DNA of 64,000 bases from a virus (IMGVR_UViG_3300037721_000031:128001-192000); one strand, 5' to 3'; shown: positions 9,566 to 64,000, numbered from the stretch's first letter. The notes: generated by a model from the letters alone, not told the origin. Made by a program: numbers and translations.

Positions 9566-11758
9566 CTATACGTGCCAAAAGTCAGGAACGGTCATTTGTT
9601 CTTCAATATCTAATTCAAGATATCTATCAATTCCTATTACATTAGTTACGTCTCTAGGATTATTAACTAACTCTGGTAAATCATAGCTAACGTCTACTGA
9701 AATAGGAGAACGGTTATAATACGTAGCACTGACGTCGGTCAGACTAGGTTTAACAGGTATGTCCAATTCTGCACTGATTTTACGGCCAACATGAATAACT
9801 TCATCAAACGTGGCTGATCCGATATCGAAATAACCACCTTGCTTTTGTTTTTGATCAGCTGTCAATACACCGACAGTCATTGGAAGCTTTTGATGATACT
9901 TTGTATAGCCGGTGATATTATCAGGCCTTGTTCCTGATTCTCCAGCATCCAATATTGCAGTACTATTAATAGCTGAATTATATTGCACACTGTAACTAGA
10001 CAACTGTGACATTATGCGAATCATGGCTCGCTGAATATCTTCTAAACTTATAGCTTTAGAAGCAATGATACCTGTTGCCGCCTCAAGTAAATCTACAGAT
10101 AGTTGTGCTAAGTGAGATAGTGTATATTCAGATATAGTTATATTTCTATCTGAGAACCAATCTGCGTAGAACTGTCCTTCTTCACCTAACTGTATACCTA
10201 CATCGGCCCAGAAACGAGTAATAAGTCCCATTTTCTGACCGCGGGCATTATTAAATTGCTCAGATGATGCGTACCCATACTGAAGTAATGCGCACTTCTG
10301 AATACTGCGACAGTGTTCGTTGAAAGTGTCTACAGAGATCATTGGGTTAGTGGTCGGTACTAAGCTCAACATATTTTGAGCAAACTCAGTACTAACTACT
10401 TTTGGATTAACAACAGACATTACATCCTGTACTGTTGGTTTTGGTACTAGCATAACTCGTTCAGCAACTACTTTAGGTAGCCTAACCAAAGTAATATTCA
10501 TATTCACACAAGTAGCGTATGTGTAAAATACGAAGGCGTCTCTTGCAGTCATAACTAATGCTTCACCAGTCAGTGGAGAAGTTACACTGATGAATGCACG
10601 GTAATGATCTAGATGACTAAGCCACAGCCAGTGATTAAGTAATATATCTGCTAGCGTGTAACGTTCAGATCCTGTGAAGTCAATAATTGACGATTCTAAA
10701 AGTTTAGTCTTCAATTCATTAGCAAGAGAATATTCCATTACTCTAGCTGCTACTCTTTGTTCTGAGTCACGATACTTGGTATTATCACGTGCTAGAAAGT
10801 CTTCTTTATCCATGACTTGAGTCAAGGTAAAAGTATCTTTCATGTCGTAATTAGTCTTAGTATTCAGAGGTATTTTCTTGAATGATATTTCTGGCTTTAG
10901 ATTACCAGGCATATCTTGCAAGTCATGTCGCATTTGATATTCAGCAAGAGGTAAACCTCTGCTGGTCATGATATGTTCTGTCAACCATTCAAACACTTCT
11001 TGTTTGCCGCTATTTCTCTCAATGTAAGCTATGTTACGATACAGCCAAAGCGCTTGTGATCTAGTGAGGTACATCAAGTATACATCAAGTAATCCGTGGC
11101 TCGCTAAGTATTGCCGTAAGTGATAGCTATGCACTTCATTTGTTTTACATGCTCTTAATCTGAGATTGATAATACTAGCAACCATGTTGATATAAAGTAT
11201 ACCAAGCATTGTTGTTGAGTATAGATTATCAGATAATCCATATTGAGGATTATCCCATCTAGACAGGTAACTGTATATCCACTCTTGCAAGTTATTAATA
11301 AGTGAATATTCGTGCTCTTCCACTAACTGTGGGGGATACGATAAAATAGTTCCATTACGGGCTGAAATAGCAGCGTCAATATTGCAAGGATGTAAAATAC
11401 CAAGAATTAGTCTTTCTTGATTCGGATAGCGATTAACTAATTCTTTATAGTACTGTCCGCCGTAGGCGTATGTTTTAGCGGTAGTGCGGTGAAACTGCAA
11501 GTTATCCTTGGTGAAATTTACCACCTCTAACGTATCTAATGATATCACAGTCATCATAGTGTCGTCGTAATGATAGACACCAGATACGTGTAGATAGTAT
11601 TTCCATGTGGTAGGATCAAGACGATCTACAGCCTGAGGACCTAGACGAATATACAACTCATCGTTAATTGCATTTGCAGTGTCTTTAGACTTTAGGACGA
11701 TACTCTCTGCCAGTCTAAATACTGACTCGGCATAGATTGAATAATAATTATCTTCCAC
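9566..11758 (-). CDS. Virion structural protein (phiKZ gp128-like, baseplate wedge-like)
   Basis: 730 aa, GTG start; TWKYYLHVSGVYH and LWLYRNIAYIERNSGKQ motifs; divergent from the portal gene. Confidence 0.65.
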   Translation of the reverse strand: MEDNYYSIYAESVFRLAESIVLKSKDTANAINDELYIRLGPQAVDRLDPTTWKYYLHVSGVYHYDDTMMTVISLDTLEVVNFTKDNLQFHRTTAKTYAYGGQYYKELVNRYPNQERLILGILHPCNIDAAISARNGTILSYPPQLVEEHEYSLINNLQEWIYSYLSRWDNPQYGLSDNLYSTTMLGILYINMVASIINLRLRACKTNEVHSYHLRQYLASHGLLDVYLMYLTRSQALWLYRNIAYIERNSGKQEVFEWLTEHIMTSRGLPLAEYQMRHDLQDMPGNLKPEISFKKIPLNTKTNYDMKDTFTLTQVMDKEDFLARDNTKYRDSEQRVAARVMEYSLANELKTKLLESSIIDFTGSERYTLADILLNHWLWLSHLDHYRAFISVTSPLTGEALVMTARDAFVFYTYATCVNMNITLVRLPKVVAERVMLVPKPTVQDVMSVVNPKVVSTEFAQNMLSLVPTTNPMISVDTFNEHCRSIQKCALLQYGYASSEQFNNARGQKMGLITRFWADVGIQLGEEGQFYADWFSDRNITISEYTLSHLAQLSVDLLEAATGIIASKAISLEDIQRAMIRIMSQLSSYSVQYNSAINSTAILDAGESGTRPDNITGYTKYHQKLPMTVGVLTADQKQKQGGYFDIGSATFDEVIHVGRKISAELDIPVKPSLTDVSATYYNRSPISVDVSYDLPELVNNPRDVTNVIGIDRYLELDIEEQMTVPDFWHV

Positions 11759-54847: not shown

Positions 54848-55051
54848 TTAAACCTTTGAGATTATGATTATCTCTTTAGCTTTACGACGCAGTTGTATCT
54901 GGCTGTCCAAGAAATCTTTTAACGAAGTCTTAATTGAAACTGCCTTGGCCTTTTCCCACATACGTTCATGAAATGCACGACGTTGTTCTTCTGTAGATTG
55001 TCCAAGAGGATGATTCTCTAAAGGAGTTGACATTACTTTTAGTTGCTGCAT
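54848..55051 (-). CDS. Hypothetical protein
   Basis: 67-aa ORF 3 nt downstream of dcd. Confidence 0.5.
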   Translation of the reverse strand: MQQLKVMSTPLENHPLGQSTEEQRRAFHERMWEKAKAVSIKTSLKDFLDSQIQLRRKAKEIIIISKV

Positions 55052-55054
55052 TAT

Positions 55055-55654
55055 TTACACCTTTGGAAGAACAATTTCAGCTGCTTGTCCTTGATACTTA
55101 CCACTACGATCGCGATAAGTCACACTCGGCCTAGCTCCTCGAAAGAACTGAATTTGCAGACCGCCTTCATTAGCATAAATTTTTGCAGGCGAAGGAGTTG
55201 TATTTGCAAACTCAAGAGTGAGGTATCCTTCCCACCCAGGCTCTAGAGGAGTAACTAAGCAGTTAATACCGACTCTAGCAATTGTAGACTTACCAACGCA
55301 GATCCCGACTACATCTTCCGGCATACTGAAACGATCCAATGTTCGTGTCAGAATAAATGAGTTCGGAGGGATGATGCAGTAATCGCCTTCTTTTTCTACG
55401 TAATTCTTAGGATTGAAGTCCTTTGGATCGACAATTGTAGAGTGTACGTTAGTGAAGACTTTAAACTCAGGGGCGACTCGTGCATCATAACCAAACGATG
55501 ATAGTCCGTAACTAATGATGCGCTCATTCTTATCATTAGCTTTTACAGAATGATCAACGAAGGGTGAAATCATTGGATTAGGACCCTGACAGAGCTCAGC
55601 AATCTGCCAGTCTGCTAAGATACCATAGTGATTTTCTGTAGATGACATGATCAA
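55055..55654 (-). CDS. dcd: dCTP deaminase
   Basis: [45 protein letters not shown]. Confidence 0.95.
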
Positions 55655-56163
55655 TGTACCAACCTAAGATGAGGACGCGGCTTCTCCACAGTAGCTTCAG
55701 ATGTCTTATCTTCTCTCAGCTCGGTAGCTTCGCCTGCAACCTTACTGCTCACAGCCAGTGTTTCTTGACCATAGTACAGTGAGAAGTTAGATGCCGCAAT
55801 GTTACGAATATCGTCAGGTGATGAAATCGCTACAATTGATTCAAACGGAAGAAACACGTCAGTAGAGTTTCCGTTAAAACGCATTTTGGCACCAAATCCC
55901 TTATCATTCTGATAAAAAGAACTAGTTGCCATTAAACCAAAGTTTAGCGTCAGTATCTCTACATAAATCATCTCATGATGGCTGTCGCCGTTAGCGTCTT
56001 TAGTCATCACTGGACATGGAGCGGTTCGCATAGCGACACCAGCAGGGGCGACTACGCCAGGGCACTTACCTGCAGCATGCAGGTGAACCTTCTCGAAGTT
56101 TTCACACATCCATGAAAACAGTGCCGGAAGCATGTGGCGGCGCGGATCAGTCATGTCGATCAT
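55651..56163 (-). CDS. sspB: Stringent starvation protein B (ClpXP adaptor)-like
   Basis: A.FSW..EN, LNFG, MRFNG...[12 protein letters not shown]-terminal XB-like RPHLRLVH. Confidence 0.75.
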
Positions 56164-56194
56164 ATTCGTTATCCTTTTTTGATTAATATTCAGT

Positions 56195-56473
56195 TTATAC
56201 TGAACCAGGGTTTACAATGTTCCAACAAGCATCAGGAAGCTGACTTTTCTCAACGGTGAAATGTAAAGCTGAATCTTGTTTTATACGGCGCAGTACTTCG
56301 GCTTCAACGTCGCGCATAACTTTCAGCGCGTCAGTCTGCGTAAGCCAGATTTGAGTTTTTGGCTTATCGTTATTAAGCGATATTGTAGGAAGTAATGCGA
56401 ACATCTCCGCATCAGTTAATGTTTTACTAGTCATTTTATATCCTATCAGAAAACACAAACTAAATGTTATCAA
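56195..56473 (-). CDS. Hypothetical protein
   Basis: 92-aa ORF; true start may be the internal Met. Confidence 0.5.
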   Translation of the reverse strand: MITFSLCFLIGYKMTSKTLTDAEMFALLPTISLNNDKPKTQIWLTQTDALKVMRDVEAEVLRRIKQDSALHFTVEKSQLPDACWNIVNPGSV

Positions 56474-56480
56474 TGTAATT

Positions 56481-56897
56481 TCATCGTTCTAGAAACATTT
56501 TCCATTTCGATGGGAATGAGCAGTTAATAGCTTCTGCGAAGAACGGTGCAATTTGTGAAGCAGAATGACCAGCATACCCGCAAGCAACACCAGTTACCCA
56601 CCACTTTAATTCTAAGTGTTTCTTTGTGAAATCAGAAAAGAGCATGACTGATTTTCTTATGTTAGTCAAAGGTAGTGTTATTATATCTTTCGTAGACCTA
56701 ATATACAGTCTTGTAGGGATAGCGTATGCTTCACCAGTCATGCCTTCAGAAACACCTATCTTTGCACCGAACGATACTCTGGCTTTTAAAGCAGCACCAG
56801 CACCATGAATGCCACCAGTATTACTTCCGAATACAAAGATCTCACCTTGTTCTGGTAAAGTACCATCAGTGTGGTACGCGCGCTTTATCGTTTCCAT
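56481..56897 (-). CDS. Conserved phage protein with macro-like FVFGSN..G.HG.GAA motif
   Basis: EIFVFGSNTGGIHGAGAA...YAIPT...VTGVACGYAG. Confidence 0.65.
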   Translation of the reverse strand: METIKRAYHTDGTLPEQGEIFVFGSNTGGIHGAGAALKARVSFGAKIGVSEGMTGEAYAIPTRLYIRSTKDIITLPLTNIRKSVMLFSDFTKKHLELKWWVTGVACGYAGHSASQIAPFFAEAINCSFPSKWKMFLER

Positions 56898-57214
56898 TGT
56901 TTATAATGCTGTTCTATGAGTACAGGTATACAAATGAAGATCTGAAAAATGTAGAACGCTATAATAACTATTGATAATACTGGTACTAGTCCAGCAAACA
57001 AGATAGTAAACGCGTCTGACATTTTTGGCTTCGTATACAACTTCATTTCGAAAGGACCATAGATGAATAATAGGTAACCTACACCTATAATCACAGGTAC
57101 CTTCGTTCCAGTCGGTATCATCCACACATACACTAAAGTATACAATGTATGAATGGTGAGTAATGTGCTTGGAAGTAACCATGCGTAGACTACTACGTTT
57201 TGAAAGTTTTCCAT
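56885..57214 (-). CDS. Membrane protein (about three TM segments)
   Basis: Highly hydrophobic 109-aa ORF. Confidence 0.55.
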   Translation of the reverse strand: MENFQNVVVYAWLLPSTLLTIHTLYTLVYVWMIPTGTKVPVIIGVGYLLFIYGPFEMKLYTKPKMSDAFTILFAGLVPVLSIVIIAFYIFQIFICIPVLIEQHYKQWKR

Positions 57215-57269
57215 AAAGTTCCAATAATACTGTTTCTCAACAAATAAACCGATCCATTATTACATTTAT

Positions 57270-57277
57270 GTAATATA
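57270..57277 (-). promoter_or_regulatory. Putative early promoter motif TATATTAC
   Basis: Intergenic, upstream of a minus-strand operon; a second intergenic copy lies at 50021-50028. Confidence 0.45.
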
Positions 57278-57312
57278 GGCTTAAAAGAATCTAGATTCTT
57301 ACTACTACAGGT

Positions 57313-57678
57313 TCAGTTTAGGGACTTACTATCGTCGATCCCTGTTAATACACTAACATCCTTAGGATCAATATTGGCATCCATGAGTAACGCAGGTAAC
57401 GCCATACTGAACATCATGTTTTGTCTAGCATTCTCATCAGAGTCCATAAATTTTTGACGTAATTCTAAAGACCATCCTAACTGTGACTTACAACAAGAGA
57501 AATCTGGACAACACTCACCACCTTCAATCTTCATTATACGAATTACGTTATCATTGTCATCCACTATCTTTATGTCTGCATCGTTATTGTGAATAGAAAC
57601 ACCCTTAACCCATTCACTGAGTTGATGATCATGCGATTGCTTATAGGTCATGTTTATATCTTCTGCATAGTTGAACAT
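57313..57678 (-). CDS. Hypothetical Cys-containing protein
   Basis: W..G...HN...ECCPDFSCC. Confidence 0.6.
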   Translation of the reverse strand: MFNYAEDINMTYKQSHDHQLSEWVKGVSIHNNDADIKIVDDNDNVIRIMKIEGGECCPDFSCCKSQLGWSLELRQKFMDSDENARQNMMFSMALPALLMDANIDPKDVSVLTGIDDSKSLN

Positions 57679-57803
57679 TATAATTCTAGCACTCTTGTAA
57701 AAAATATAAAACGACAGAATACGTTAGTTGAATCTTATGAAATCGATTAACGTATTCTGTTTAATTAGTTGAACATTAATTATAACTCTAAGGAAGTTCT
57801 GGT

Positions 57804-59240
57804 ATGAGTATAGTGAAACCGTATCTTGGTCTTAGCAGAAATAGACTCACTGATTTAATTAATACTGATAACAATCCAGATCGTGTAGAAGGAGTGGACT
57901 TTACATACGGTCTTCCTCAGACGGTAACTGGTCCTAATGATGAAAACACCACTGTTACACTAACACCAGTGCAAGGAACTAACTATCGTAGTCCTGTAAA
58001 TGTTTTCTATAATAGACTCTCGATAGCTGTAGTAGGTGACCTACCGTATAACTCTATCGAACCAGCTGTGATTTCTAGTGCCCCATTCTGGATCAGAAAT
58101 GTTCTTCCAGAGATAAATAGAGCACTAGGACTAAACCTTGTGCCAGATGAAGTTGTTAACAGGTTATATACCTCTATACAACCAACTTACGAACTAACAA
58201 TCAACGGTAGTAAATCTTTAGCTTGGCTGTCTAGCACATTACAGTTTGACGCAGTTACTACCCCACTATTTAGGCTTGATACCTCAATAACAACTAGTCT
58301 ACTGTCAGGTTTTAATAGCCAAAGCATACAGCTTAATAGTAAAATCACATTAAGTACTTTAGACGGATTTGATTTAGGTCTTATAAATATCAATAGTCTT
58401 ATTACAAGTGATAATCTGGATGGATTTGATGTACAGAAGATGTCTCTTACAAGTACTATAACTGATGAGAGTTTAGATGGATTTGATATAGCTGCTGCAA
58501 CGTTGAATAGTTCAATGGTTAGTAACCTTGACGGATTTGATATAGTCTATGCTGATATTAACAGTACAATCAATACTGAGTATCTAGATGGCTTCGATAG
58601 CGCGGAAGTCGATGTCTCAAACTTTATCACATTTACTAACTTTGATGGCTTTAGTATTACGACAGTAGATATTAATCAGTTGATATCTCAAGATGATCTA
58701 GATGGATTTGATAAAGTAACTGCTCCACTATCTAATTCGATATCTACTAATTTAGATGGATTTGACAGTACACTCGCTAGTATTAATACCGTTATAAGTA
58801 CACCGAATTTAGATGGATTTGATAGCCAACTTGCTAATGTCTCCGAGTTAATAACATTAACAAATTTTGATGGTTTCAGTCCTACAACTGTTAGTATAGA
58901 ACAACTGGTGCTTGAAGAAATACTTGACGGATTTGATAAAGTCACTGAATCAATAGATAACTTAGTATCAACAGATGTATTAGATGGTTTCGATCTAATG
59001 CCGGAATCAATGGATAATCTGATACCTGAAGAAGTCTTAGATGGATTTGATAAGGTTACAGAAACTATAAGTAATCTAATGCCGGTAGGTCAGTTAGATG
59101 GGTTTACACCAGTGACTGTATCCCTTGATGAACTTATACTTAGTGAGTCACTTGATGGATTCGACAAAGTGACTGCGTCAATGGATGAATTAGTACTTGA
59201 TGACGTTCTTGACGGATTTGACCCAGAGATTATGATTTAA
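57804..59240 (+). CDS. Virion tail/baseplate-associated protein with 17 tandem ~19-aa LDGF repeats
   Basis: phiKZ-like N-terminal domain (NTTVTL...YNRL) followed by (x)nLDGFD repeats to the C-terminus. Confidence 0.75.
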   Translation: MSIVKPYLGLSRNRLTDLINTDNNPDRVEGVDFTYGLPQTVTGPNDENTTVTLTPVQGTNYRSPVNVFYNRLSIAVVGDLPYNSIEPAVISSAPFWIRNVLPEINRALGLNLVPDEVVNRLYTSIQPTYELTINGSKSLAWLSSTLQFDAVTTPLFRLDTSITTSLLSGFNSQSIQLNSKITLSTLDGFDLGLININSLITSDNLDGFDVQKMSLTSTITDESLDGFDIAAATLNSSMVSNLDGFDIVYADINSTINTEYLDGFDSAEVDVSNFITFTNFDGFSITTVDINQLISQDDLDGFDKVTAPLSNSISTNLDGFDSTLASINTVISTPNLDGFDSQLANVSELITLTNFDGFSPTTVSIEQLVLEEILDGFDKVTESIDNLVSTDVLDGFDLMPESMDNLIPEEVLDGFDKVTETISNLMPVGQLDGFTPVTVSLDELILSESLDGFDKVTASMDELVLDDVLDGFDPEIMI

Positions 59241-59364
59241 AGAAGTTAACTACAACTTCTGTAATGAATTCTAATTAAGGGAATTTAGGGTTCAGGTGGT
59301 AATATTTCTTTTTGTACAGTACTGACGTTAGTCATCGTACATAATTTACTTTTTTGGAAACAAC

Positions 59365-59826
59365 ATGCCTCACCAAATTGATAGAACCAAGACAGCCAGA
59401 CAAAATTTTATTGATCTCGTCAATACGGGGTCCGATTATGTTTTTGTTGGAACAGAATTTACAGAATCTGGTAGTCCTGAATTGTACACAGGGCAACCTG
59501 AAGTCAGTAATACTCAAATCACCTTAGAATCCACGCCTAACTCGGGATTTGTAGGAACGAAGACTGTGTATTATAGAAGACTAGATGCCGGTAACACTCG
59601 TACCGCAGCAGCTCTTGATTTCGATATTACTGAAACTGACGACTTAGCTAGCTTAAAGAATTTAATTTGTATTGAACATAATCTGGTAGCTAGCGAAGTT
59701 AACATCGTCGGTGACTTACCTACTGAAGTCGATGAGACTACGGTAATAAACGTATTCTTAGACCCATTTAGCCTTCTTTATACTGGTGGTACGTTTGAAG
59801 TTAATGTTACGTTAGTTGATATCTAA
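59365..59826 (+). CDS. Tail-associated protein, MPHQID paralog 1 (adaptor domain only)
   Basis: MPHQIDRTK..NFIDLVN...SNTQITL...GF.GTKT..YRRL. Confidence 0.7.
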   Translation: MPHQIDRTKTARQNFIDLVNTGSDYVFVGTEFTESGSPELYTGQPEVSNTQITLESTPNSGFVGTKTVYYRRLDAGNTRTAAALDFDITETDDLASLKNLICIEHNLVASEVNIVGDLPTEVDETTVINVFLDPFSLLYTGGTFEVNVTLVDI

Positions 59827-59916
59827 TGTAATTACTAGAATTAATGAGCGCATAAATGATGAGGACTTTTTCCTCATCATTTATATTATTTAAATAGATC
59901 ATTATACTAGGAAATT

Positions 59917-60390
59917 ATGCCTCACCAAATTGATAGAACTAAAAGCAGTTACCAGAATTTTATTGACCTTGTAAATACAGGATCGACACACACATTTACT
60001 GGTGATGAGTTTTTTGAGATTAGTACTCAGAATGTACAACCTTATACAGAAGAGCCTGGGATTGTTAATACTCAAGCAGAATTAATAGCTGCACCAGGCT
60101 CAGGATTTACAGGATCTAAGTTTATTCGATATAATCGTTTAGAGCCTGGCAATACTCGTTTCGGTGCATCTCTAGATTATGAGATTACATCTGAAGACAA
60201 TGATGCTTCTTTAAAAGAAAAGATCTGTGTGGAACACAATCTTATATTTAACGAAGTCAGTGTGGATGGTCAGATTCCTGAAATAGTCGGTGATACAAGT
60301 CAGATGACTGTGGTCTTTCCAGAGTTTAGTCTTATATACATCGCAGGCAGTATGCTTATCAATGTGACATTAGTAGAATCTAATCCTTAA
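59917..60390 (+). CDS. Tail-associated protein, MPHQID paralog 2 (adaptor domain only)
   Basis: Same conserved N-terminal architecture. Confidence 0.7.
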   Translation: MPHQIDRTKSSYQNFIDLVNTGSTHTFTGDEFFEISTQNVQPYTEEPGIVNTQAELIAAPGSGFTGSKFIRYNRLEPGNTRFGASLDYEITSEDNDASLKEKICVEHNLIFNEVSVDGQIPEIVGDTSQMTVVFPEFSLIYIAGSMLINVTLVESNP

Positions 60391-60524
60391 ATAATAATAA
60401 TAATAATAATAGTTATAATAAAGACATAATCAGTGGAGGCATAAATAGCTAGAATATATTCTCGTTATTTATGACGTTTGAGTTTAGCCGACTTCGTAAC
60501 TCTCGTCATAAAGGAGTCTCACAC

Positions 60525-61523
60525 ATGAGTCTTTTGAAGCCTTATTTAAGGTTAACACGCGACAGATTAACATCTCTCATAAATAACGACAGCGATCAAG
60601 ATAGAGTAGAAGGGGTTGACTTCGTATATAGCGACCCACAACAAGCTTTGGGTCCAAACGGTACAAACACAGTAGTTACTTTAATTCCGTTACCTGGATC
60701 TAGCTATTACGAACCTACTCAAGTTTACTATAACAGATTACATATATCTGTAGCTGCACAGTCATTTTATAACGCTGTTGAACCTGTTATTATTTTAAAT
60801 GTTCCGTTTAGGATGCACGATGTCCTAAACGAGATTAATAGAGTATTTGGATTGAGTCTTACTACAGACGACGTGATTAATACTGAACATACGTCTGAGG
60901 AAAGCTCGTATACTTTATTTACGAATGGTGATAAATCGTTAATCTGGATGTCAAGTACATTACAGTTTAGAGCTACAGTAGTGACAACAGGTACTGATTC
61001 TTTAGATAATCTAATACCAGTTGATTGTCTTGATGGATTTAGTCTACAATCAGCATCTTTATGCGAATTACTTGATGTGACTATTCTTGATGGATTCGGT
61101 TTGACCAATATGGTCCCACATGGTGATTTGGGTGGTATGGTTAATAGTCCATTAGATGGATTTGATTCAGACTGTATAGTTTTATCGCAAGCTATCAGCA
61201 ATACATTTCTAGACGGGTTCAGTGCCGGCACTGCAGTTCTGGATGATGTTATTGAATTGAGTTACCTGGACGGATTCAGCACTCTTAAAGTAAGTTTAGA
61301 AGATGTCTTTGAAAGTAATAATCTAAACGGCTTTACTAGCTATCCTTCAGAGCTAAGCTCAGTGTTGAATTCAAATATTCTTGATGGATTTACTTTTACG
61401 ATAGCCAGTCTTAGTGATATACTGAGTCAAGATGTATACGATGGCTTTGACCCTATCGAAACCGATTTGGAAGAAGTAATTCTTAGTACAAACTTTGACG
61501 GTTTTAACCCTAATGCATTATAG
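60525..61523 (+). CDS. Paralog of 57804-59240 with 9 LDGF repeats
   Basis: MSLLKPYLRLTRDRL... (AAGGAG RBS before 60525); L(D/N)GF repeats. Confidence 0.75.
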   Translation: MSLLKPYLRLTRDRLTSLINNDSDQDRVEGVDFVYSDPQQALGPNGTNTVVTLIPLPGSSYYEPTQVYYNRLHISVAAQSFYNAVEPVIILNVPFRMHDVLNEINRVFGLSLTTDDVINTEHTSEESSYTLFTNGDKSLIWMSSTLQFRATVVTTGTDSLDNLIPVDCLDGFSLQSASLCELLDVTILDGFGLTNMVPHGDLGGMVNSPLDGFDSDCIVLSQAISNTFLDGFSAGTAVLDDVIELSYLDGFSTLKVSLEDVFESNNLNGFTSYPSELSSVLNSNILDGFTFTIASLSDILSQDVYDGFDPIETDLEEVILSTNFDGFNPNAL

Positions 61524-61582
61524 TAAAGCATTAGTACTAAGTAGTCCAATCAGTAATTAACCTTATTTTTCGTAGAAACAAT

Positions 61583-62635
61583 ATGCCACATCAAATTGAT
61601 AAAACTAAAACTGCCGAACAGAACTTGATTGATCTTATTAACGCTACATCTGAGTATACTTTTACAGGAGAAGAATTTACACATGGTACTCCTGAAGAGT
61701 ATACTCCTGAATCACCAGATATAAGCAACACACAGGTACTATTAACAGCTGTACCTGGATCTGGCGTTACTGGTACCAAGATTATTACGTATCGTCGTCT
61801 GGAAATGGGTAAGACTGTTACAGCGGCACCTCGGACTTTCGAAGTCACTTCTTCTGATAATCAAGCTAGTGTTGAAGAACTTATTGCTGAAGCGCATAAC
61901 TTAGTATATGGTCAGTTTTACCTGTCTGGCTCTATCCCGTCACCAGGTGGTTCAGATACAAACTGTACATTACACGCCTACAGTGATAGCTTGCTGTATT
62001 TCGGCACATGTCCAATTACATTAACCTCAGAAGAAGTTGCACCTCCTGCTGAACAAAATGTGTTTCAATTGAGAACACGTACACCGAATATACAGTATAC
62101 AAGTGTGTATTTAGCAGATGTTCCAACTGCGATTGTTATTGGTAATGATGCGAATACTGCTACAGAAGAGTGGAGTACTGCGTTTAATCCGAATATTACT
62201 ACGGATGAATCAACTGTATCGTTAAGTGGTCCAGGTACTGCAGCAGATTTCTTCACCACGCGCCAACCTTCCACAGAAGGTCCTCGTTATTGGGAAATAC
62301 TTATTGTTAACGTCGCACCTGAATTGGGTACTTTTGCTATTGGCTTGTACGGTCATCCGTTTAATGATTTCAATGAAAATCTTTATGTTGGTGGTGCGCC
62401 AGATATCGGCGGCAGTGCAACTTATTACGAGTCGACTGGCTTTATTGTAAACAACAATAGCACTGTTACATCAGGTCCTGTACTTGCAGAAGGTGACGTT
62501 GTTGGTATTGTTGTTAGTAATCCGGCAGTGCCTAATGCAGCTAGGTTCTATGTTAATGGTGTATTTATTGGTACAGCAGACGTAGCCGCTTCATCAGTAA
62601 CACCAATTGCTTCACAGAAACAAATTGAAGTTTAA
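61583..62635 (+). CDS. Tail-associated protein, MPHQID paralog 3 with C-terminal SPRY/lectin-like domain
   Basis: Adaptor domain plus GPRYWEI...FAIGL...GDVVGIVV...FYVNG. Confidence 0.65.
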   Translation: MPHQIDKTKTAEQNLIDLINATSEYTFTGEEFTHGTPEEYTPESPDISNTQVLLTAVPGSGVTGTKIITYRRLEMGKTVTAAPRTFEVTSSDNQASVEELIAEAHNLVYGQFYLSGSIPSPGGSDTNCTLHAYSDSLLYFGTCPITLTSEEVAPPAEQNVFQLRTRTPNIQYTSVYLADVPTAIVIGNDANTATEEWSTAFNPNITTDESTVSLSGPGTAADFFTTRQPSTEGPRYWEILIVNVAPELGTFAIGLYGHPFNDFNENLYVGGAPDIGGSATYYESTGFIVNNNSTVTSGPVLAEGDVVGIVVSNPAVPNAARFYVNGVFIGTADVAASSVTPIASQKQIEV

Positions 62636-62685
62636 GTACTCTATAACGTTTTTAATAATTTAACTTCTTAAAGAAGGAAAAAAAC

Positions 62686-63699
62686 ATGCCTCATCAAATC
62701 GACAGAGCAAAGACTGCTGATGAAAATCTGATTGACCTTATTAATACGGCATCTACTTATACTTTTACAGGAACCGAATTCACACACGGTGATCCTGCTG
62801 AGTATACTCCAGAGTCACCTGACACGAGTAATACTCAAATTACTCTTACATCAGTACCCGGGTCTGGTGTTACTGGTGCGAAGACCGTAAGATATCGCCG
62901 CTTAGAGATGGGTGAAACGCGAACTGGTGCTTCAACTACTTTTACAGTTGAAGATGGTGACGATAGAACTAGTCTCGAAGCAAAGATCGCTGTTGAACAT
63001 AACTTAGTTATTGGTCAGTTTACCTTAGTAGGTACTATACCTGAATACGGTGACGCTGATTCTAATTGTACAATAGAAGCTGTAACTAACAGCGTTCTCT
63101 ACTATGGGACAGCGGCTGTAGTTCTGAGTGAAGATTTGAGTGAACCGGTACCAGCTGGATATTCAGTCCGCATGCGTACAGTGCTGGAAGACATGATATA
63201 TGAAAGTAGTTATGTCGCTGCAGTAGCGGATGTTACAGGGCGAGCAGGCACTATAGATCCAGCGTCTATTGGTCCAGGCGTTACGTTGTCTGAACTGGAT
63301 ATGACGGCTGAATCTTCTGGTCTTGCTGCCTCTTGCCATGGTACTGAGAATAGCTTAGTACCAAATGGTATTGTCTGTGAGTGGGAGATTATTGGATCTG
63401 GTGATGCAAGAATGTCTGTTGGATTCTTATCTGGATCAGGTTCGTACGACAACAGTGCATTCCGTGCTGGCGATGATAACTTCCCGGGACCGTTCGGTAC
63501 GTGGTACGACAGTGATGGACAGGTAGTAGCTGCAGGTCAATCATCACTTGTTGCACCGACATACACTGTGGGTGATGTCATCGGTATTATCAATCGCTCT
63601 GGTACCGGTACTTTATTCTTCAAAAATGGAACTCAAGTACTTAACCCATCAGGCACATTGAACTTCCCAAGAGCTGCAATCTCTTTTGAAGCTGTTTAA
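62686..63699 (+). CDS. Tail-associated protein, MPHQID paralog 4 with C-terminal SPRY/lectin-like domain
   Basis: Adaptor domain plus CEWEI...SVGF...YTVGDVIGI...FFKNG. Confidence 0.65.
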   Translation: MPHQIDRAKTADENLIDLINTASTYTFTGTEFTHGDPAEYTPESPDTSNTQITLTSVPGSGVTGAKTVRYRRLEMGETRTGASTTFTVEDGDDRTSLEAKIAVEHNLVIGQFTLVGTIPEYGDADSNCTIEAVTNSVLYYGTAAVVLSEDLSEPVPAGYSVRMRTVLEDMIYESSYVAAVADVTGRAGTIDPASIGPGVTLSELDMTAESSGLAASCHGTENSLVPNGIVCEWEIIGSGDARMSVGFLSGSGSYDNSAFRAGDDNFPGPFGTWYDSDGQVVAAGQSSLVAPTYTVGDVIGIINRSGTGTLFFKNGTQVLNPSGTLNFPRAAISFEAV

Positions 63700-63746
63700 T
63701 ATCTGATTAAGAAGTTAATGTAGTTTTTATAAAGAAAAAAAGATGT

Positions 63747-63779
63747 CATAAGAGCCCGGGGAATTCCCCGGGCTCTATG
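63747..63779. terminator. Bidirectional terminator / palindrome
   Basis: cata-agagcccggggaattccccgggctct-atg. Confidence 0.75.
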
Positions 63780-63785
63780 CTGTAA

Positions 63786-64000
63786 TTAAACAGAATGATG
63801 ATCAACATCTGAAGTAGTATCAATGCTGGTGCTAATGACAATACTATCTATTAGAAATAGTTTAGCGTCACTTGTCCTACCGCAGTAACCTAAGTCTCTG
63901 TAGAATATACCAGCCACTTTAGTATAGATACTAGCTAGACCAGAAGTAGTCTGAATTACAGTTAGCGCAGTATCGCTAAAGAAGCTAAGTAAAAGGTCTT
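63786..64000 (-). CDS. C-terminal fragment of a gene running off the window
   Basis: Open frame ...DLLLSFFSDTALTVIQTTSG...DHHSV* ending at 63786. Confidence 0.5.
   Translation of the reverse strand, partial: DLLLSFFSDTALTVIQTTSGLASIYTKVAGIFYRDLGYCGRTSDAKLFLIDSIVISTSIDTTSDVDHHSV

Follow-up and report, generated by a model that had tools for sequence, protein, structure and literature searches.

What does a phage build with a short peptide repeated many times over at the end of a virion protein? The question is raised by two genes between positions 57804 and 61523 of a 64,000-nucleotide (nt) window, bases 128001-192000 of the IMG/VR virus record IMGVR_UViG_3300037721_000031 (266.5 kb, estimated to be 98% complete); positions below are those of the window unless stated otherwise. 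The genes encode protein 1 (P0001, 478 amino acids (aa); 57804-59240, + strand) and protein 2 (P0002; 60525-61523, + strand, 332 aa), each made up of a DUF7941 N-terminal domain (NTD; PF25613) and a run of units ending in L-D-G-F. The original prediction had counted 17 such units in one protein and 9 in the other, and motif count and spacing confirm both numbers. We report that, on the evidence of their sequences, these tracts consist of 17 and 9 tandemly amplified copies of the single-copy linker motif of DUF7941 itself, L-x2-[LV]-[IV]-x4-L-D-G-[FL], and that P0001 and P0002 are members of the DUF7941 family of chimallivirus virion proteins. The family, its role in the virion and the model of linker docking are already known (bioRxiv 10.64898/2026.04.21.720040, hereafter the Goslar preprint; PMC13250141). 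What is new is that the linker has been amplified in tandem, that the amplified form is paired with linker-less paralogues and that an array occurs on a baseplate wedge protein: the texts consulted describe none of these. A literature search for 'LDGF' with 'phage' found nothing relevant, and the Goslar preprint makes no mention of linker arrays (bioRxiv 10.64898/2026.04.21.720040).

The repeat unit and the DUF7941 linker

DUF7941 is a chimallivirus-specific virion family, recognised as an abundant component of the particle only in 2026. A virion of phage Goslar has ~580 copies of gp22 and ~2140 of gp23, and their layout was described as a globular domain at the N-terminus, then a 'disordered linker' and, in gp22, a further C-terminal domain (bioRxiv 10.64898/2026.04.21.720040). 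For Goslar and phiKZ, an AlphaFold 3 prediction docks the linker of one protomer on the NTD of the next, giving head-to-tail filaments; in Goslar, homotypic as well as heterotypic contacts are predicted, and gp22 purified on its own assembles into filaments and bundles as viewed by negative stain (bioRxiv 10.64898/2026.04.21.720040). Some members bear carbohydrate-binding or leucine-rich repeat (LRR) domains, and the authors proposed a host-sensing 'fibre cloud' anchored at the baseplate (bioRxiv 10.64898/2026.04.21.720040). The contact between linker and domain behind this model rests on structure prediction.

The unit repeated in P0001 and P0002 coincides with this linker. The genes for Goslar gp22, gp23, gp31, gp33 and gp34, read directly, each encode a single motif immediately after the NTD: LDLANIIKVTNLGNLTY in gp22, LATVLADNVADGFVKP in gp23, LNNLVRNNMLAGLNY in gp31, IAGMMKSTVMTGLNF in gp33 and LDDIIAIKELDGLKF in gp34. 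In an alignment of 26 sequences (A2), which includes P0001, P0002, the Goslar proteins and seven canonical paralogues from another phage (L004), the first repeat of P0001 and P0002 shares its columns with the linkers of those five Goslar proteins and of the seven paralogues, and proteins of the type we term MPHQID stop short of them. The positions common to the unit and the canonical linker are hydrophobic residues at -12, -9, -8, -3 and 0, D at -2 and G at -1. Homologues recovered with the same alignment bear out the statement in the original prediction that many phiKZ-like tail proteins have one terminal LxGF motif: in addition to the Goslar linkers, exactly one is found, at the end of the protein, in 49 of 50 gp23-like homologues (177-197 aa; consensus PL[IV]xxxxLDGFNx[WY]), and it is found in none of the five MPHQID-type homologues of 152-153 aa. 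A profile of the linker built from 48 single-copy tails of other phages only, and run on all 626 open reading frames (ORFs) of the genome, matched just three: P0001 (54.4 bits, E = 1.6e-16), P0002 (36.7 bits) and a gp23-like protein (28 bits). Of 300 shuffles of the tract, none scored above 10.5 bits.

The third match is the product of a gp23-like DUF7941 gene of the same phage that lies outside the window (genome positions 107515-108054, - strand), encodes 179 aa and adjoins a 415-aa ORF. It has one C-terminal LDGF linker, ending ...FLDGFNVWSA, and is likely to be a self-polymerising filament subunit.

The domain boundaries are consistent with the family assignment. The PF25613 match of P0001 (65.6 bits) covers aa 10-176 on profile positions 7-176 and thus extends through the first repeat; that of P0002 scores 68.7 bits. 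In both, the match ends at profile position 171-176, and the globular domain at the C-terminus of canonical members (~275 aa; positions ~180-276) is absent. This domain is not required for membership, because the accepted member Goslar gp23 also lacks it. P0001 and P0002 end 5-6 residues past their last unit, as gp23-like proteins do past their single linker. A sequence search of P0001 against PDB chains gave no match. The DUF7941 proteins of the cluster have the PHROG label phrog_1037, 'virion structural protein', and from this label, the Goslar mass spectrometry and the phiKZ map we infer that P0001 and P0002 are present in the virion and attached at the periphery of the baseplate.

Within protein 1 the NTD takes up aa 1-152 (57804-58259, + strand) and the tract aa 153-472 (58260-59219, + strand), after which a 6-residue tail remains. 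The 17 G-F motifs lie within residues 169-472, spaced by 19 residues (14 times) or 18 (twice); the motif is LDGF in fourteen units, FDGF in two and LSGF in the first. Protein 2 has 9 units and one degenerate LGGM insert. Its listed ORF opens at 60471, the 332-aa protein being residues 19-350 of P0002; the start is most likely the ATG at 60525, and the listed one is probably unused, since AAGGAG lies 8 nt upstream of this ATG and the 332-aa homologues P0005-P0007 begin at the equivalent position. Counted from the preceding F, the unit has L/I at +7, L/V at +10, I/V at +11, L/F at +16, D at +17 (93%), and G at +18 and F at +19 (both 100%). At least three LDGF-type motifs are found only in P0001 and P0002 among the 626 ORFs.

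As the original prediction had it, this strictness of the protein motif goes with diverged DNA: the array is invisible to Tandem Repeats Finder at the DNA level, the units share on average 0.46 nucleotide and 0.36 amino acid identity, and L-D-G-F is spelt with four Leu and four Gly codons. Since the units have diverged in DNA and yet keep L-D-G-F with varied codons, the array must be old and kept by selection on the protein. The tract was also singled out as very acidic. Its charge is as described (net -53 in protein 1 and -29 in protein 2, pI ~4.05), but acidity is not a defining feature of the repeat, because every protein of the six-gene cluster is acidic and basic residues make up 13-14% of the tract in the relatives P0011, P0012 and P0028. 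What is conserved is better explained by a partner surface than by packing between repeats: single copies keep the same positions without a neighbouring repeat, which makes a partner surface the simpler account.

Relatives, gene neighbourhoods and the locus

A search with the tract among 1.84 billion representative proteins returned only 21 at E <= 0.001, about a dozen of which are true relatives. Two hits of the repeat search, P0035 with its eukaryote-like MLDGFDAAPQRKP repeats and the LRR-like bacterial protein P0036, were judged convergent and left unused. The number of units varies widely among the relatives: ~6 in P0010, ~7 in P0009, ~9 in P0002 and P0005-P0008, ~17-18 in P0001, P0003 and P0004, ~29 in P0026, ~38 in P0027, ~52 in L013, ~62-66 in L003 and L014, and ~72 in P0025. 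Among close orthologues it is the same (e.g. 9 in P0002 and P0005-P0007). The NTD attached to the units is of the type we term KPYL in most relatives, whereas P0026 has its array behind an MPHQID-like domain. In L003 (1425 aa), L013, L014 and P0026 the NTD is followed by 29-62 units and then by a C-terminal globular domain. The proteins of 52-62 units end in a domain of ~150 residues (…WDTLPxTWxxWxTW…; L003:11790-12257, with equivalents in L013 and L014) that matches nothing in Pfam or PHROG, a candidate receptor-binding tip.

Several relatives depart from the simple layout. P0011, P0012 and P0028 open with two tandem DUF7941-like N-terminal segments (aa ~60-170 and ~182-321) and have 16-22 units of a Lys-rich, 20-residue version (LDGFDSDKxKLL…). 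P0025 (1870 aa, residues ~780-1500) and P0027 (1184 aa, ~700-1150) possess a second repeated module of roughly 55-60 residues (…PEPEWR…L..V..P.L..AI.KN..YT…), again with no Pfam or PHROG match. P0010 (624 aa), which shares its 35.5-kb metagenome contig with P0003, is a KPYL-type protein with 6 LDGF units fused in frame to a second DUF7941 domain (…PSHQINRTKTAKQN…) and a SPRY-like domain, the neighbouring gene being joined without its Met; this may reflect a read-through or a sequencing error, or be a genuine covalent union of thread and tip. P0033 (945 aa), a Goslar gp35 homologue, matches phrog_3222 over residues 1-649 and has 12 [LV][DN]GFDY-type units of 18-19 residues at its C-terminus, which are only weakly similar to the linker profile. 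As this gp35-like protein of another phage bears 12 similar units, the array appears to be a transferable module attached to the baseplate. The gp35 homologue in the window itself, an upper-wedge baseplate protein (9566-11758, - strand; phrog_3222, E = 4e-204; 37% identity to Goslar gp35, E = 8e-128), has no repeats, unlike P0033.

The company kept by the arrays is likewise conserved. In eight loci, namely the source phage genome (G000), L003, L007, L008, L009, L010, L013 and L014, no DUF7941 gene of the cluster bears linkers other than the multi-repeat gene (P0001 and P0002 in G000). In all eight, one to several linker-less DUF7941 genes follow it on the same strand, and in six of the eight these include NTD-only proteins of 151-157 aa. 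Orthologues of P0015, the 153-aa NTD-only protein of the source phage, are found at 152-157 aa after the multi-repeat genes of L003, L007, L010, L013 and L014. L010 has just two NTD-only genes (153 and 152 aa); L003, L013 and L014 have one each; L007 has two, along with a series of linker-less DUF7941-type genes, three of them with a Laminin_G_3 match. In L009 four genes for NTD and tip come after that of an 833-aa Laminin_G_3 protein, which begins with an MPHQID-like segment, and in G000 two NTD-only genes accompany two NTD-SPRY genes. A ninth contig, compared by gene size only, has the same gene sizes.

At the source locus, six co-directional tandem genes (57804-63699) share the PF25613 domain, five above its 27-bit cut-off and the sixth just below; the genome scan matched this domain at 7 places. 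Between and after proteins 1 and 2 lie four genes of MPHQID type, all on the + strand and all without the linker motif. The 153-aa protein P0015 (59365-59826; 31.2 bits) and a 157-aa paralogue (59917-60390; 26.1 bits), which are 51% identical, consist of the NTD only and end before the linker columns of alignment A2. A 350-aa protein (61583-62635; 46.7 bits) adds a SPRY/ConA-like C-terminal domain with a weak SPRY match, and a 337-aa protein (62686-63699; 50.7 bits) a SPRY-like one (E = 0.0026). The SPRY assignment in these two proteins combines a low-score Pfam match with ESM Atlas features and structure; for the 337-aa protein the feature score to SPRY clusters is 0.91 and the structural template-modelling (TM) score to SPRY models 0.65-0.70. 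A search of the 337-aa protein against PDB sequences found only chance-level matches to TolC and a Ran-binding protein. The two SPRY-like domains are candidate receptor-binding tips.

Several DNA features border these genes. An 18-nt inverted repeat, 89% complementary with an 11-nt loop (57714-57760), occupies the divergent intergenic region between a minus-strand gene ending at 57678 and protein 1, and could be a regulatory site or a bidirectional terminator. A consensus scan found a terminator-like hairpin 3' of the 153-aa gene (59852-59884, + strand), a weak call as these sites are no more numerous than expected from shuffles. The only DNA-level tandem repeat within 55000-64000 is an (AAT) microsatellite of ~10.7 copies (60390-60421) that begins at the final base of the stop codon of the 157-aa gene, upstream of protein 2. 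A repeat search found a GC-rich perfect palindrome of 13+13 nt (63751-63776) between convergent genes at the end of the block, likely a bidirectional terminator.

The genome as a whole is that of an uncultivated phiKZ-like (chimallivirus) jumbo phage, judged by the 266.5-kb record together with phrog_3004, the gp35-like baseplate wedge protein and a major head protein of phiKZ type (phrog_3231); its other jumbo-phage genes include those for a DnaB-like helicase and a polymerase-annotated protein (phrog_2943). By tblastn matches to the protein 1 NTD only, Burkholderia phage FLC9 and Ralstonia jumbo phages come nearest among cultured phages. Megablast of the locus against cultured phages gave no match, and at this sensitivity (megablast, tblastn) no array was found among the cultured phages of the collection searched: arrays are so far seen only in metagenomic phages.

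A proposed docking thread and a rival fibre shaft

We put at about 45% the probability that the tracts of P0001 and P0002 are a multivalent docking thread which holds the neighbouring DUF7941 proteins by a putative binding. Each amplified unit would retain the docking function of the linker, making the tract a thread of back-to-back sockets. With its own NTD the protein would occupy a socket, either of the baseplate or of another DUF7941 protein, and its own sockets would be filled by the NTDs of the adjacent linker-less paralogues: two NTD-only 'beads' and two NTD-SPRY 'tips'. In the Goslar model each subunit has one plug (the NTD) and one socket (the linker); here plugs and sockets would be split between plug-only proteins and one protein with a single plug and many sockets. 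Unlike an open-ended polymer, the resulting fibre or brush would have its length and valence set genetically, and it would multiply the receptor-binding tips around the baseplate. By simple arithmetic an extended 19-residue unit measures at most ~6.5 nm, and would therefore leave room for one 150-residue domain. With slightly less assurance than the thread itself, we suggest that each 19-residue unit captures one DUF7941 NTD, in which case the 478-aa protein would organise a fibre of fixed length with ~17 bead or receptor-binding subunits. If this is true, a single polypeptide ruler would let the relatives with 50-70 units make fibres that extend over hundreds of nanometres; the thread would be the phage equivalent of a scaffoldin and would set the length and valence of a fibre in a new way.

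The scaffoldin-like docking put forward in the original prediction thus gains a footing in docking-linker homology, linker-less MPHQID neighbours and a conserved pairing, while the binding of repeats to MPHQID domains stays hypothetical. It is a reasoned hypothesis because the repeats are real, their single copy is a docking linker, the MPHQID neighbours are linker-less and the pairing is conserved. A shared plug domain is at hand in the four adjacent linker-less genes of MPHQID type, a layout seen also in the seven other loci. We further count in favour of docking the 12 similar units on the gp35-like wedge protein P0033 and an AlphaFold2 model of eight units (49-row, in-register alignment), which has short helical turns and no compact fold: predicted local distance difference test (pLDDT) 62, predicted TM score (pTM) 0.15. 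A complex prediction of the 153-aa NTD-only protein (61-row alignment A3) with three P0001 units (64-row alignment A4) scored 0.00 without controls, and counts neither way.

Several observations pull in the other direction. Single-copy linkers conserve an aromatic residue two positions after G-[FL] (LDGLxYP, LDGFNxW), which most units of P0001 and P0002 lack. Charge complementarity between tract and partners had to be rejected, the partners being as acidic as the tract. The spacing from G-F to the hydrophobic residues of the next unit is strictly fixed, the sole common indel being one residue inside the unit, and this fixed spacing points to a regular superstructure instead of independent sites. 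The tract is fairly hydrophobic, with a grand average of hydropathicity (GRAVY) of +0.14 to +0.28; the ESM Atlas model is beta-helix-like and the first AlphaFold2 run gave beta-strands. The globular domain after the tract in several relatives makes an anchor-shaft-tip layout for which docking is unnecessary. Finally, short linker-less DUF7941 proteins are not exclusive to array-bearing phages, because Goslar, which has no repeat array, encodes gp91, a short DUF7941 protein with no evident linker motif.

Much of this would be accommodated if the linker-derived units had come to fold on themselves, as a monomeric beta-solenoid or an oligomeric fibre, and no longer bound anything. The tract would then be a rigid spacer projecting from the baseplate-bound NTD, its length set by the number of units, and the linker-less paralogues would attach elsewhere, e.g. 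to the baseplate. We consider such an autonomous fibre shaft possible, and the main rival, if somewhat less probable than docking. The period of 18-19 residues (20 in P0011, P0012 and P0028) falls within the ~18-25 of LRR and beta-solenoid coils, the register is strict, the positive GRAVY suggests a foldable sequence, the stable unit number of close orthologues suits a shaft, and L003, L013, L014 and P0026 have the classic fibre layout of anchor, shaft and tip; P0001 and P0002, on the other hand, are tipless, and a bare shaft would have no evident purpose. The alternating hydrophobic pattern of solenoids and LRRs (LxL, LxxLxLxxN) is not seen in the tract, where L-x2-L-[IV]-x4-L-D-G-F does not follow the in/out alternation of solenoid strands; and the LRR, pentapeptide, haemagglutinin and beta-helix families of Pfam gave no match at E <= 1. 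The ESM Atlas model (pLDDT 0.64) of residues 160-478 has among its structural neighbours a pentapeptide-repeat family (TM by query 0.89) and a TPS/filamentous-haemagglutinin family (0.81), and the AlphaFold2 run on whole P0001 (10-row alignment) placed strands across the tract. The latter model (pLDDT 48) left even the NTD unfolded and is unusable, and the eight-unit model, with the deepest alignment, is the non-compact one: the structure predictions of the tract are of low confidence and mutually contradictory. Two further features speak against a shaft: its conserved positions are those of single-copy linkers, which cannot form a solenoid, and the conserved adjacency of NTD-only genes would go unexplained.

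This adjacency would be equally unexplained if the units bound their own or sister KPYL-type NTDs, giving self-polymerising bundles or gels with no recruitment of MPHQID proteins. Such intramolecular or homotypic use has a precedent in Goslar, with its homotypic linker-NTD prediction and the filaments and bundles of gp22 alone, and the KPYL-type domain is physically attached to the units in most relatives; but with one NTD per 9-17 sockets most sockets would stay empty, and the array of P0026 is on an MPHQID-like domain, so that we think it improbable. Marginally less probable again is the Ca2+-binding fibre that the original prediction had offered as its alternative, or more broadly a fibre binding Ca2+ or Mg2+, or a repetitive adhesin for a host surface polymer, with the Asp of LDGF as ligand. 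This Asp is 93% conserved, the net charge of -53 would suit such a role, and at the very end of P0001 and P0002 the tract would be exposed. The Asp is, however, equally conserved in the single-copy linkers of proteins with other binding domains, and the acidity is not conserved, given the basic residues in the tracts of P0011, P0012 and P0028. As every cluster protein is acidic, the charge reflects the general composition of the phage. The known Ca2+-binding signatures (GGxGxD, EF-hand and thrombospondin type) are absent from the tract sequence and from its Pfam matches.

The natural arrangement splits the two halves of the predicted contact, with 9 to ~70 linkers on one protein and the domain alone on others, and thereby lends itself to a clean test of the docking model with two components. 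Should the units be sockets, they would reveal a new principle for phage fibres of defined length and multivalent receptor binding, as well as a modular display scaffold; if they form a solenoid, they are an example of a docking peptide turned structural repeat. Either outcome clarifies host recognition by jumbo phages.

Comparison with known systems

The likely location of the family in the virion is drawn from phiKZ. In its atlas, gp127 lies at the end of the gp139 spoke, in the peripheral baseplate (PMC13250141); the part modelled there is the gp127 N-terminal domain according to the Goslar preprint (bioRxiv 10.64898/2026.04.21.720040; PDB 9QXD as cited there), which also names phiKZ gp126 and gp127 as DUF7941 members that form a head-to-tail heterodimer (bioRxiv 10.64898/2026.04.21.720040). 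P0001 and P0002 are likened to these proteins as members of the same family via the naming in the preprint. Goslar gp32, the spoke protein next to the position of the gp127 homologue, has no LDGF-like motif. The 'LRR/beta-helix' DUF7941 proteins of Goslar were considered as possible LDGF arrays and rejected, the repeat type of gp161 being different and unrelated in sequence.

Beta-solenoid repeats, such as the 19-residue repeats of filamentous haemagglutinin and the pentapeptide repeats, resemble the tract in its period of 18-20 residues and its conserved Gly and hydrophobic residues, and the ESM Atlas model superposes on them; they differ in that the tract is without the alternating hydrophobic pattern, a Pfam match or a confident model. 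The likeness to the cellulosome scaffoldin, with its cohesin-dockerin pairs, concerns the logic of the docking reading only: one polypeptide offers many sockets to partners that share one plug domain. There is no homology, the binding here is putative, and the sizes are reversed, the socket being a linear motif of 18-19 residues and the plug a domain of 150.

The closest counterparts are Goslar gp22 and gp23. With these, P0001 and P0002 share the DUF7941 NTD (PF25613) and the same linker motif right after it, and with gp23 also the absence of the canonical C-terminal globular domain. The Goslar proteins have one linker per NTD and form open-ended 1:1 polymers, whereas here there are 17 or 9 linkers, and up to ~70 in relatives; and the neighbouring paralogues of P0001 and P0002, unlike the Goslar subunits, have no linker at all.

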